DNA of 64,000 nucleotides from Planctomycetota bacterium (lineage in GTDB: Bacteria; Planctomycetota; UBA11346). Of this stretch, positions 17,601-20,600 are shown in pieces (position 1 is the first letter of the stretch; the number at the start of each line of letters is the position of its first letter). A program made the position numbers. The stretch covers positions 1 to 64,000 of the forward strand of contig JBBRLJ010000021.1 in NCBI GenBank assembly GCA_038231435.1, in the 5' to 3' direction.

Positions 17601-20600
17601 CATCACCGAGTCGATCAAGATCGCCACGCTCGCCGACACCTATCACCTGCCCTTCGCGCCGCATGACTGCACCGGCCCGGTCAACGTCCTCGCCTGCCTG
17701 CACCTGTGCGCAGCCCTGCCCAACGCCATGACCATGGAGATCGTGCGCGGCTTCATCAAGGGCTGGTACCTCGACATCCTCGACCGGCCGATCGCCATCG
17801 ACTCCGGACAGGCGGCGCTCGATTTCGGCCCCGGTCTCGGCGCCAAGCTCAATCCGAAGCTGCTCGCCCGCCCCGACCTCGCGCGCCGGATCAGCAAGCG
17901 CTAGGTACCGAAGCCCTCCAGGAGATGGTGGGGCCGGAGGCGTCGAGGAAATCTCGGTGATGGAAGGCGGGAAGGCCGGTAATTACGCCGCTATTCAGTC
18001 AAGAGCGCTGCTATGGCGGCGCTGAATTCCGACGCCTATTCCGGACCCTTCACCCTGGCGAGGATGCCGATCTTCGCAAACTTCTGCTTCGCGGCCTCGG
18101 CCTCGTCCTTGGTAGCTCCCTTGAGCACCGGGATGATGACCTTCTTCGACAGCGAGTCAGCCTCGTCCTTGGTGATCTTCGCCAGATCGGCGATCAGTTC
18201 GATGGCCTTGGTGCGCTTCGCCTCGTCGGCGATCTTGGCGAGGAACACCGAGAACCCGCCCGAGCCGTTGGTCGCGGTGGGGGCTCCGACCACGGGCGTG
18301 CGCCGCGAGCCGGAGGTCGCGGGCTTCCCCGCGGCGGCGGGCGCGGCGTCGTCGTCGGGCAGCAGGCGGTCGAGGATGTTGGTGATGTCCTCGTTGTTCG
18401 GCACGAAGCCGGGCGAGTCCTCCTCGGGGAAGAGCTCGCCGAGGCGCGCGGCCGGATCATCGGAACCATCTTTAGCCGCGGGCGCGCTCGGCGCCGGAGT
18501 CATGGATTTCCCCGGCAGCACGGGATTGGAGAACGGAGTGATCTCCGGCATCGGGATGCTCTTGAACTCGGCCGCCGGAGCAGGCGTGCGCTGCGGTGCC
18601 GCGACCACCCGCGGTGCGGATGCCGCCGGCTTGATGCCGATCACCACCTCGACTTCATCCAGGTCACCGCTGACGGTCGCCTGGCTGCTGTTGAGACCGG
18701 CGAGCAGGAGATCGATCAGGGTGTGGCGGCGTCCATCGGGACCCGGCACCGAGGTCTGCAGATCCTCTAAGTGCTCGGTGATCTCGCGCTTGAACACCAA
18801 CGGGCGGCGCGGCCAATCGATCTTCGGCAGATCACCGAGATCGGCGGTCGAGAATTCGATCACGCCGCCGAGACGCTGGATACCGGAGAGGGTCAGGCTC
18901 AACGCCGCCGCTTCCTCGCGCGCAAGCCCCGAGACCAGGATGATCGGCGCCGACGCCGAGATCGCGGTGCAGGTGCTTTCCTTGAGGCTGAACGCCTTGC
19001 CGAGGAATACGGCGACGCCGGTTCGGCTCGCCGGAGGGCAGTCGCGCAGGATGATGGTATAGGTCGCGCTCATGTGCCCTGGTCCGGCATGATTCCCCTG
19101 CAACCGCCAGTGTCAATTCAACGTACGCGCTGGCGACCCGGGACGTTGACCGACGGAGGTGCCGATCGGACGTGCTGGTGGCCGCGAAGGATCTGGTGGC
19201 TGCCTGCTAGTGTACCAGGTCTCTGGGTCGGGTGCCATCGGTTGAGGGGGTTTTCCGGCCGAGGCATTTCACTGGCCCGGGCCAGTTGCGGACGAAACTG
19301 CCCACATGGGCATCATCCGTTGCGCTTCCCCAGGGGAACTGGAGCCGATTCTGCAACAGTTGGCGCGCGAGCGTGGATCGGCCCTGTTCGTGTTCTTCGG
19401 CTCCGAGGACCCTCAAACGGGTCAGAGCTGGTGCCCGGACTGCGTCACCGCCGACCCCGTGCTTCGCCGATCGTGCCGGGACCTGCGTCCCGACCTCGTC
19501 CTGTACGAATGTCCGGTCGGCATCCGCTCGGAATGGAAGAACCGTCCAGAGCATCCGTACCGCGTACACCCGGCGCTGCGTCTCCAGCGAATCCCTACGC
19601 TCATCTTCCTCCATGACGGCTGCGAACGCGGTCGCCTGGTCGAGGGCGACTGCGCGAAGCCCGAATCGGTGAAGGCGTTCCTCGCCCGCTGAGGGCTCGG
19701 ACCGCACCAGCGTGCGGCAGCTAGCGCTCGAGGCGCTGGGGGCCACACTGCCGACGCCCATGGCCAAGAAACCCGCCAAGACCGACAAAGCCAAGCCGGC
19801 CAAGGAGAAGGCCGAGGAGGTGCAGCAGATCCTGCACAACCGCAAGCTACGCCACGACTATGCGGTGCTCGAGACCTGGGAGGCGGGCATGGTGCTGATG
19901 GGCAGCGAGGTCAAGAGCCTGCGCAATGGCGACGTGCAGTGGGGCGATGCCCACGCGCGTCTCGACCACAAGGGCGAGTTGTGGCTCTACGGCTTGCACA
20001 TCGGCGAGTATCGCCAGGCCGGCACCTTCGGCCACGAGCCCGCGCAGCCGCGCAAGCTGATGCTCAACCGCAAGGAGCTCGACAAGCTGGCGGGCATGAT
20101 CAAAGGCAAGGGCCTGACCATCATCCCGGAACGGCTGCTGTTCCGGCGCGGCTGGGCGAAGATCGTCATCTGCATGGCGAAGGGCAAGACGCGCGGCGAC
20201 AAGCGCCAGGATCTGATGGAGCGCGCCACCAATCGCGACGTCGAGCGCGAGTTGGCGAGGCGCATGAAGCGGAGCTGAGAGCAGCTCGGCTGGGAGATGG
20301 AAAGCCCGGCCCCGCGCCGATCGCGCGAGGCCAGGCGAACGGTCAGGTCAACGCCCCGCTGGAGTCTTGGCGGCCTTGTCGAGCTCCGCGTCCGCTTCCT
20401 TGGCCTTCTGCGCGGCTTCCTTCATCTTCTTGCGATCCTCGTCGGCCTTGTCCTTGTCCTTGTGCCCCTGGTCGATCATCGGATCCCAGTCGGCCTCCTT
20501 CTTCAGCTCGCTGGCGAGCCGCGAATCCTTCTCGATCGCGTCGACCAGGTACGGATCGAGCTTGAGCGCGAATTTCAGCAGGCGCATGGCTACGCCGTGG

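Follow-up and report, generated by a model that had tools for sequence, protein, structure and literature searches.

Work on TRP14 (TXNDC17) has to date treated it as an enzyme of eukaryotes, and the literature that we found concerns worms, mice, and humans. According to the excerpted text of PMC11217419, TRP14 carries a WCPDC site as its family hallmark, is reduced by TrxR1, and does not reduce typical Trx1 substrates. The same excerpt presents TRP14 as the main cystine reductase and as a decysteinylase (PMC11217419).

A planctomycete protein shares several features with human and animal TRP14 (TXNDC17; 1WOU, 7XPW/7XQ3, and 1V9W), including the Pfam family, a length of about 125 aa, the WCPDC site, and the Pro-Thr loop. 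Its predicted fold also matches (TM 0.76-0.81), but sequence identity is only 29-32%. Unlike animal TRP14, it has a bacterial host, its gene forms an apparent operon with smpB, and its activity is a predicted one. The reductant would differ as well. Animal TRP14 depends on the selenoprotein TrxR1, whereas the planctomycete protein would need the bacterial low-molecular-weight TrxB. Canonical TrxA (TIGR01068) has the thioredoxin fold and CxxC chemistry in common with the planctomycete protein, but it is shorter, belongs to a different Pfam family, carries WCGPC rather than WCPDC, and reaches a TM of about 0.6-0.67.

The nearest named relatives are the TXD17-like proteins of Fonticula alba, Mastigamoeba balamuthi, Calcarisporiella thermophila, and Thecamonas trahens (43-48% alignment identity, 49-50% by phmmer). 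These protist and early-fungal proteins have the same length and motifs but differ in having eukaryotic hosts and no operon context. Plant Clot lies further off, on a long branch. Among bacteria, TXD17-like proteins of Myxococcota/Bradymonadia also have WCPDC and are 45-51% identical to the planctomycete protein. However, their gene is not beside smpB. It lies in a block of an ABC-F ATPase, an unknown gene, the thioredoxin, a glutamine amidotransferase, and a kinase-FGE gene. The place of this group in the tree shifts between analyses, either with the planctomycete clade or with Fonticula.

A TRP14-type thioredoxin in Planctomycetota

The locus lies in a 64-kb stretch of planctomycete DNA, which is called the window below. 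It comprises the following features:

18036..19103, minus strand: conserved divergent neighbour, 355 aa from TTG; a later ATG is probably the true start
19104..19305, no strand assigned: divergent intergenic region between the minus-strand upstream gene and the thioredoxin gene, with TGTCAAT(TC) at 19111-19119
19306..19692, plus strand: TXNDC17/TRP14-type thioredoxin gene, ATG start, 128 aa, with the W42-C43-P44-D45-C46 active site and the P97-T98 loop
19693..19759, plus strand: spacer from the thioredoxin stop to the likely smpB ATG, 67 bases (19 bases with the GTG start at 19712)
19760..20278, plus strand: smpB (SsrA-binding protein), 172 aa from ATG; alternative GTG start at 19712
20348..21817, minus strand: convergent downstream neighbour, a 489-aa ORF that closes the two-gene unit

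The survey's finding that a 128-aa WCPDC thioredoxin of the TXNDC17 family is encoded here is borne out by the reading frame and its product. PF06110 (TXD17-like_Trx) matches the protein with an E-value of 1.3e-23 and 83.3 bits (cut-off 23.1). The alignment is nearly full length, pairing residues 13-127 with profile positions 9-118 of 119. A whole-genome search returns a single PF06110 copy (82.5 bits), and no NCBIfam model matched the 128-aa product. The SWCPDCV motif occupies residues 41-47, with Asp between the two Cys. Among proteins of solved structure, the closest by sequence are TXNDC17 7xq3 (E 7.8e-18) and human TRP14 1wou (E 4.3e-14). An AlphaFold2 model of very high confidence (pLDDT 97.2) was compared with the PDB by Foldseek, and ranks 1-6 are all TRP14/TXNDC17. 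Ordinary thioredoxins come after these, the next being thioredoxin h at a TM of about 0.66, which places the predicted fold nearer to solved TRP14 than to them. The nearest matches beyond the TRP14 family are mostly eukaryotic cytosolic thioredoxins, a pattern drawn from a PDB that is itself biased.

Thirty copies from the lineage are identical at W42, C43, D45, C46, C69, P97, and T98. CxDC is intact in each of them, as CPDC (27 copies), CADC (two), or CKDC (one), and 37 positions are near-invariant. The gene appears to be under selection because the CxDC motif and these near-invariant positions have been kept. P97 is the sole invariant column in a 35-sequence alignment of the family. In thioredoxin-fold proteins, the conserved loop Pro lies opposite the active site and is a cis-Pro in solved thioredoxins. 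The sequence, active site, and predicted fold together support the assignment of the 128-aa protein as a true member of the TRP14/TXNDC17 family.

Distribution and inheritance

The thioredoxin gene is present in 36 of 48 lineage genomes, counting that of the window, and in 14 of 18 genera. The survey had counted 32 of 47; the recount differs slightly from this figure. A phylum sample of 401 genomes had 20 positives among 24 lineage members, while the 377 other Planctomycetota gave only three borderline matches (21.6-25.3 bits). The lineage had been described as one bacterial family. It is instead a whole GTDB class (genomes at least 85% complete), represented by metagenome-assembled genomes (MAGs) only, and the gene also occurs outside it, in four of 301 sampled Myxococcota genomes, away from smpB. 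The genome collection was scanned with a 10-sequence alignment and one peptide pattern, and variant motifs and the reported archaeal members lie outside the reach of that scan.

On an SmpB tree, two changes suffice to explain the presence and absence of the thioredoxin, and the genera that lack it (g9, g16, and g17) form one group. Vertical inheritance within the planctomycete lineage is the best explanation because so many of its genomes and genera carry the gene and so few changes are needed.

All genomes of the lineage being MAGs, a eukaryotic contig or gene could in principle have been misbinned into them. A case resembling this was encountered elsewhere: in L060, a hit labelled Verrucomicrobiaceae, the gene is interrupted by an in-frame stop and an insert and resembles a broken gene or one misbinned from a eukaryote. 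In the window, however, the gene has bacterial genes on either side on one contig, smpB being 19-67 bases 3' of it, and this layout is repeated in 28 of 30 loci drawn from different genomes. Its GC content (0.656) matches that of its host (0.676 for the window). Contigs that carry the copies of relatives reach 725 kb. For this lineage a misbinning artefact is already refuted because the bacterial context is conserved, and its probability is negligible.

Eukaryotic affinity and the probable direction of transfer

The named members of the family that were found belong to fungi, animals, plants, Amoebozoa, Apusomonadida, and Carpediemonas. In a 74-row tree, one branch (93/81) parts 29 named eukaryotes from all 33 bacterial rows. 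Among eukaryotes, only Mastigamoeba and the long-branched Carpediemonas group with the bacteria. These two account for the outcome of an AU test, which rejects a grouping of all 31 named eukaryotes (p 0.007). The data do not reject a planctomycete clade that excludes Mastigamoeba (p 0.425), and Mastigamoeba joins the planctomycete clade in all four trees.

The position of the root depends on the outgroup. Canonical thioredoxins from the same and related genomes place it in the planctomycete side, with Myxococcota and eukaryotes together (98/92). Four other outgroup thioredoxins, used with Carpediemonas removed, give a basal polytomy. Myxococcota then group with Fonticula (98/91) and Thecamonas (96/84), inside eukaryotes, a placement with a support of 95 in another tree. 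The two outgroup sets disagree, and neither is used here as evidence of the direction of transfer.

These trees bear on the reverse direction, according to which the TRP14 family would be old in bacteria, the planctomycete and myxobacterial copies relics, and eukaryotes early recipients; in a narrower version, Mastigamoeba alone would have later received a planctomycete-type copy. The branch that sets 29 eukaryotes against all bacteria, the root within the planctomycete side, and the constant company of Mastigamoeba are each what such a history could leave. However, the outgroup that yields this root has a high GC content like that of the bacterial ingroup and attaches beside the longest branch, Carpediemonas, whereas the other set yields the polytomy and the association of Myxococcota with Fonticula and Thecamonas. 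The bacterial distribution is also extremely narrow and the eukaryotic one wide, and the eukaryotic character of the nearest non-family structures points weakly the same way. We regard the reverse direction as unlikely.

Transfer from a eukaryote to the lineage is the likely direction, favoured by the distribution of the family in the face of trees that conflict on the root. We give weight to distribution because the four trees gave conflicting or unresolved roots. The survey's proposal that the gene was taken from a eukaryote thus keeps the support of its closest named relatives, which are eukaryotic, and gains none on direction from the tree check, where the two rootings disagree.

The thioredoxin-smpB unit and its surroundings

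The product of the second gene matches PF01668 (E 1.4e-46) and the SmpB equivalogs NF003843 (168.1 bits, cut-off 130) and TIGR00086 (147 bits, cut-off 119). Its start is more likely the ATG at 19760 (MAKKPAK...) than the GTG at 19712. A gap of 19 bases between the two genes, as first reported, is correct as to strand but requires the GTG; the likelier start gives 67.

That the thioredoxin gene adjoins smpB across the lineage was confirmed: in 28 of 30 fetched loci, smpB comes directly 3' of it and in the same orientation. The two remaining loci comprise one that ends at a contig edge and one whose smpB is on a separate contig. In 23 related loci, with start codons that we assigned, the median spacer is 26 bases, and 11 of the 23 spacers are no longer than six bases or overlap. 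A few loci have long spacers or spacers with hairpin-rich inserts (840, 192, 151, and 114 bases). The unit is bounded by opposite-strand genes, divergent upstream and convergent downstream. A two-gene operon is well supported because smpB follows the thioredoxin gene so regularly, often abutting or overlapping it, and the two genes are probably co-transcribed.

A putative thioredoxin-smpB promoter would lie within 19104-19305. A simple consensus scan of the plus strand from 18900 to 20500, spacer included, found no promoter-like or terminator-like sites, although such a scan may not suit this phylum. The TGTCAAT(TC) motif was considered as the promoter of the thioredoxin gene and rejected. It reads TTGACA on the minus strand, where the scan marks a promoter-like site, TTGACA-16-AATCAT, and fits the promoter of the upstream minus-strand gene instead. 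TGTCAAT is found in 14 of the 23 intergenic regions that were aligned, and the shorter core CTGTCAA is also present in two thioredoxin-less loci. No tmRNA gene was found within the window.

The pair is part of a wider conserved block. Neither flanking gene product (18036..19103 and 20348..21817) matched a Pfam or NCBIfam family. Of 26 planctomycete loci, 19 have the divergent upstream gene next to the thioredoxin gene, and one of the seven misses lies at a contig end. Where smpB is present (23 loci), the downstream gene directly follows it in 12. No junction of the block is kept as often as that between the thioredoxin gene and smpB (23 of 26 loci). In three thioredoxin-less genomes (G040, G039, and G025), the upstream gene stands directly beside smpB, followed by the downstream gene, so that the block is kept with an empty site. 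A search for a thioredoxin remnant in seven loci, using a profile of 30 copies against six-frame translations, gave a best match of only E 0.65.

A possible link to ribosome rescue

A rival reading is a functional coupling in which some part of the trans-translation machinery would be kept reduced by the thioredoxin under thiol or oxidative stress, hence its operon with smpB. The candidate targets are EF-Tu, which delivers tmRNA-SmpB, the conserved SmpB Cys, and released tagged proteins. The superior conservation of the thioredoxin-smpB junction over the other two junctions of the block is in keeping with this coupling, and functional pairing would likewise produce the short or overlapping spacers. 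SmpB of the lineage has a Cys in 22 of 23 genomes, and a CxC in nine of 23. In the excerpted text of PMC11288746, depletion of TrxA in Synechocystis raises smpB mRNA, and EF-Tu is in the accession list of proteins. The Myxococcota thioredoxin of the same type lies 3' of a ribosome-associated ABC-F ATPase gene, with eight bases between them in one genome.

Against the coupling, the conserved Cys of SmpB is present at six of six examined loci without an adjoining thioredoxin gene, five of them from genomes that lack the gene. The SmpB Cys does not track the thioredoxin because it is found in all six. Where a genome lacks the thioredoxin, smpB still sits in the same block, and one genome has the thioredoxin gene and carries smpB on a different contig. 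The ABC-F gene lies 2-3 kb off in three of the four Myxococcota genomes, and a 70%-identical metagenome relative has an altogether different context. We found no literature that mechanistically ties SmpB to a thioredoxin. Overall, the coupling seems quite improbable.

The ABC-F neighbour was also considered as a second, independent link to translation. This was rejected, as the gene is directly upstream in one of four Myxococcota genomes and absent from one metagenome relative.

A stronger version makes the thioredoxin a dedicated redox partner of ribosome rescue, which would restore an oxidised or cysteinylated component, such as EF-Tu or the conserved SmpB Cys, under stress. If true, it would explain the class-wide translational coupling of both genes, and trans-translation would have its first case of redox control, resting on a gene acquired from eukaryotes. 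We consider this version very improbable. The redox step in ribosome rescue at which the survey had hinted is not upheld: the pair sits inside a wider block, the block persists without the thioredoxin, and the SmpB Cys does not track it.

Proposed function and history

The account that we prefer, and hold to be reasonably probable, is that of a TRP14-type thioredoxin acquired across domains, which by analogy would act as a TrxB-dependent reductase of small disulfides and would be expressed from the smpB promoter. The gene may have entered the ancestor of the class-level planctomycete lineage by inter-domain transfer, the most probable donor being a eukaryote from the part of the tree that holds amoebae, fungi, and apusomonads. 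It would have landed in the divergent intergenic region just 5' of smpB and then passed down vertically as the first gene of the thioredoxin-smpB operon. The product is predicted to be a cytosolic dithiol-disulfide oxidoreductase with a WCPDC site. Judging from TRP14, its reductant would be the ordinary NADPH-dependent TrxB of the cell, and its likely substrates would be cystine, persulfides, and cysteinylated proteins, not classic thioredoxin targets. The genome encodes one TrxB (366.6 bits, cut-off 343) and two canonical thioredoxins. The place before smpB may provide steady housekeeping expression, with no mechanism shared with trans-translation.

Intact copies across a class-level bacterial lineage would offer a clean and ancient example of a gene passing between eukaryotes and bacteria. 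The lineage is also a simple bacterial setting in which to study TRP14 function and whether a bacterial-type reductase drives it, and the tight smpB operon is a direct test bed for whether thiol stress and ribosome rescue are linked. Should they turn out not to be, the case illustrates how steady expression can come to a foreign gene that settles behind a housekeeping promoter.

Literature searches found no publications on these planctomycete TRP14-type proteins and none that pair TXNDC17 with Planctomycetes. Searches for TXNDC17 together with bacteria and horizontal gene transfer likewise found none, and the DUF953 literature, judging by titles, has no bacterial members. Some proteins of the lineage are already in public databases, annotated as 'DUF953 domain-containing protein [Planctomycetes bacterium]'.

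A TRP14-type thioredoxin upstream of smpB

The thioredoxin gene and smpB, a ribosome-rescue gene, sit inside a wider conserved block, whose features in the window are as follows.

Genes of the thioredoxin-smpB block
18036-19103, minus strand: divergent upstream gene, 355 aa; adjoins the thioredoxin gene in 19/26 loci
19306-19692, plus strand: TXNDC17/TRP14-type thioredoxin gene, ATG start, 128 aa, contains SWCPDCV
19760-20278 from ATG (alternative GTG at 19712), plus strand: smpB; PF01668, E 1.4e-46; two NCBIfam equivalogs over their cut-offs
20348-21817, minus strand: convergent downstream gene, 489 aa; directly after smpB in 12/23
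21954-23105, minus strand: conserved lineage-specific protein, 383 aa; 51-77% identical across the lineage

The survey's finding had described a TXNDC17/TRP14 thioredoxin with a WCPDC site. This assignment is confirmed by the SWCPDCV motif, by the Pfam PF06110 (TXD17-like_Trx) match, which covers positions 9-118 of the 119-position profile (83.3 bits, cut-off 23.1; E 1.3e-23), and by structural comparison. The best solved relatives by sequence are snail TXNDC17 (7xq3, E 7.8e-18) and human TRP14 (1wou, E 4.3e-14); NCBIfam models gave no match to the protein. An AlphaFold2 model, with a 35-sequence alignment as input, reached a mean pLDDT of 97.2 and a pTM of 0.90. The top six Foldseek matches to this model in the PDB are TRP14 structures only (TM 0.76-0.81), and ordinary thioredoxins, mostly eukaryotic cytosolic ones, rank after them (TM about 0.6-0.67). 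Sequence and predicted fold alike place this bacterial protein in the TRP14 family as a new member.

The CxDC site is whole in all 30 lineage copies (27 CPDC, 2 CADC, and 1 CKDC), and W42, C43, D45, C46, C69, P97, and T98 are identical throughout. The gene and the window differ little in GC content (0.656 versus 0.676), and contigs bearing related genes reach 725 kb. These features point to a long-kept gene that belongs to the host and whose predicted enzyme is almost certainly active. The same genome encodes two canonical thioredoxins and one thioredoxin reductase, all over curated cut-offs; the TRP14-type protein is therefore an addition rather than a replacement, with a reductant at hand. 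Low-molecular-weight reductases resembling the bacterial one are in use in fungi and many protists. A gene from a fungal- or protist-like donor could function with bacterial TrxB immediately. One study describes TRP14 as a WCPDC protein that is reduced by thioredoxin reductase and is inactive on typical thioredoxin substrates; inside cells it is the main reductase of cystine, and it also strips cysteine from cysteinylated proteins (PMC11217419).

Distribution and inheritance

Within the GTDB family to which the window belongs, the family profile detects the gene in 36 of 48 genomes, across 14 of 18 genera. A class-level search of genomes at least 85% complete yielded 23 genomes, every one from that single GTDB family, which therefore amounts to a class-level lineage, represented by MAGs throughout. 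When 401 genomes were sampled across the phylum, 20 of 24 lineage members carried the gene, and the rest of the sample gave borderline matches only (3/377 genomes, 21.6-25.3 bits). Scanning the species-representative genome collection with the single pattern GxSWCPDC[VI] returned 30 loci: 26 planctomycete-type, three from Myxococcota/Bradymonadia MAGs, and one labelled Verrucomicrobiaceae. The proposed restriction to one bacterial family agrees with the Planctomycetota sample, apart from the borderline matches, but that family is a class-level lineage and 4 of 301 sampled Myxococcota genomes have strong matches.

In an unrooted SmpB tree of 23 genomes, two changes suffice to explain thioredoxin presence and absence. 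Carriers occur in both main branches, and the genera without the gene (g9, g16, and g17) form one group within one of them. The simplest reading of this tree is that the common ancestor of the lineage had the gene and that one or two losses followed; a single, slightly later gain within the lineage is possible, given that the tree is unrooted.

The Verrucomicrobiaceae-binned copy (L060, 3940-4264) is split just after CPDC by an insert with an in-frame stop, and looks like a misbinned intron-bearing eukaryotic gene or a broken copy or pseudogene. Six metagenome proteins of 305-893 aa (P0122, P0123, P0125, P0127, P0157, and P0266) contain between two and four TXD17-like domains in tandem; some have extra thioredoxin-like matches, and one lies on a 61.7-kb contig.

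The smpB junction and insertion site

The reported adjacency to smpB across the lineage is borne out: in 28 of 30 loci smpB is the next gene downstream and on the same strand. One exception has the thioredoxin gene at the end of its contig; in the second, genome G030, smpB is on a different contig and a convergent PLP-enzyme gene comes after the thioredoxin gene. The 19-base gap first given for the window applies to the GTG start at 19712 but becomes 67 bases with the ATG at 19760. With smpB starts in related loci set by likeness to this ATG, the spacer has a median of 26 bases across 23 loci (range -8 to 840), and in 11 of these it is at most 6 bases or the genes overlap. This pattern suggests an operon with translational coupling, from which we infer joint expression with smpB. 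The flanking genes are divergent upstream and convergent downstream, and the pair is therefore a self-contained unit. Enlarged spacers in L033 (192 bases), L034 (114), and L052 (151) hold hairpin-rich or short-repeat inserts, including runs of CGAACG/CGTTCG in L052; the 840 extra bases in L037 contain an ORF of no known family.

The upstream gene, smpB, and the downstream gene stand in this order in three genomes that lack the thioredoxin gene (G040, G039, and G025). The thioredoxin gene thus fills exactly the divergent intergenic region before smpB. A lineage-profile search of the loci of thioredoxin-less genomes found no thioredoxin remnant (best E 0.65). A foreign gene inserted ahead of smpB would be transcribed from the smpB promoter.

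The 355-aa upstream protein matches no family over threshold. Its final 74 residues weakly resemble PF00542, the ribosomal L7/L12 C-terminal domain (E 0.0057; 17.4 bits, under the 25.9 cut-off); by eye, its N-terminal part seems alike, and its middle is low-complexity and Pro/Ala-rich. Beside its start, TGTCAAT(TC) at 19111-19119 is conserved in 14 of 23 aligned intergenic regions (L031-L059), and two loci without the thioredoxin (L075 and L094) share the core CTGTCAA. On the minus strand this motif reads TTGACA, with a -10-like AATCAT 16 bases on, and it probably serves the upstream gene as promoter. The 489-aa and 383-aa proteins downstream of smpB, both lineage-specific, match no Pfam or NCBIfam family.

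The link to ribosome rescue

The redox step in ribosome rescue hinted at earlier has so far gained no support, and no sign of a shared function stood up: the SmpB cysteines are independent of the thioredoxin and the pair lies within the wider block. One SmpB Cys (C138 in the window), on the strand that precedes the GK motif, is conserved in 22 of 23 lineage genomes, and a second, two residues further (CxC), is present in 9 of 23. Neither tracks thioredoxin presence, and both were rejected as a mark of a thioredoxin link. No tmRNA gene was found within the 64-kb window. In Synechocystis, according to one report, TrxA depletion raises smpB mRNA, and EF-Tu is among the proteins in its accession list (PMC11288746). 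This result is a lead and not evidence for the present locus. The tight, persistent coupling of the two genes keeps the rescue link worth a direct test.

The TRP14-type genes of the small Myxococcota/Bradymonadia group lie in a different block (L055 2232-4315, L056, L057, and L116), which starts with an ABC-F ATPase gene and an unknown gene ahead of the thioredoxin; after it come a glutamine amidotransferase gene on the opposite strand and a protein kinase fused to an FGE-sulfatase domain. The ATPase is of a ribosome-associated type (NF011646, 633 bits; NF000355 over its cut-off). As a second translation link this neighbour is unsupported: it ends 8 bases before the thioredoxin start in L055, is separated by 2-3 kb and the unknown gene in the other three genomes, and a 70%-identical metagenome relative has a wholly different gene context.

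Origin of the gene

An exhaustive cluster-representative search gave 851 clusters with E ≤0.001. The nearest named relatives are Fonticula alba, Mastigamoeba balamuthi, Calcarisporiella thermophila, and Thecamonas trahens (43-48% alignment identity; 49-50% by phmmer), and named members in a profile search include many fungi, animals, plants, Heterostelium, and Carpediemonas.

For the trees, unnamed rows were excluded save ten chosen ones; the rooted trees also omitted 14 of 30 planctomycete rows. In a quick tree of 192 rows, Mastigamoeba grouped with the planctomycete clade (96) and Fonticula with that of Myxococcota (95). A careful 74-row tree joined the two bacterial clades (93/81) and placed Mastigamoeba and the long-branched Carpediemonas within the planctomycete group (98/85), with the other 29 eukaryotes and all 33 bacterial rows on opposite sides of one branch. 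Holding all 31 named eukaryotes together was rejected by the AU test (p 0.007, log-likelihood difference 62.7). Uniting the planctomycete rows without Mastigamoeba was not rejected (p 0.425), so Mastigamoeba could be either the sister of that clade or a branch within it. With canonical thioredoxins of the same high-GC genomes as outgroup, the root fell on the planctomycete side. A second outgroup, thioredoxins of four other planctomycetes, with Carpediemonas removed, gave a basal polytomy, with Myxococcota beside Fonticula (98/91) and Thecamonas (96/84).

Gene exchange between the domains is certain. On the direction the trees do not agree; distribution favours the eukaryote-to-bacterium transfer originally claimed. 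Capture from a eukaryote is plausible, and the tree neither shows nor excludes it; because the eukaryotic distribution is very wide and the bacterial one very narrow, we consider a eukaryotic source of the bacterial gene fairly probable.

The Mastigamoeba balamuthi copy (P0128, from EukProt) groups with the planctomycete clade and not with the amoebozoan Heterostelium in four of four trees, and its closest kin are the metagenome proteins P0132 and P0150. This placement points to a further transfer between an amoeba and the planctomycete lineage, in one of the two directions.
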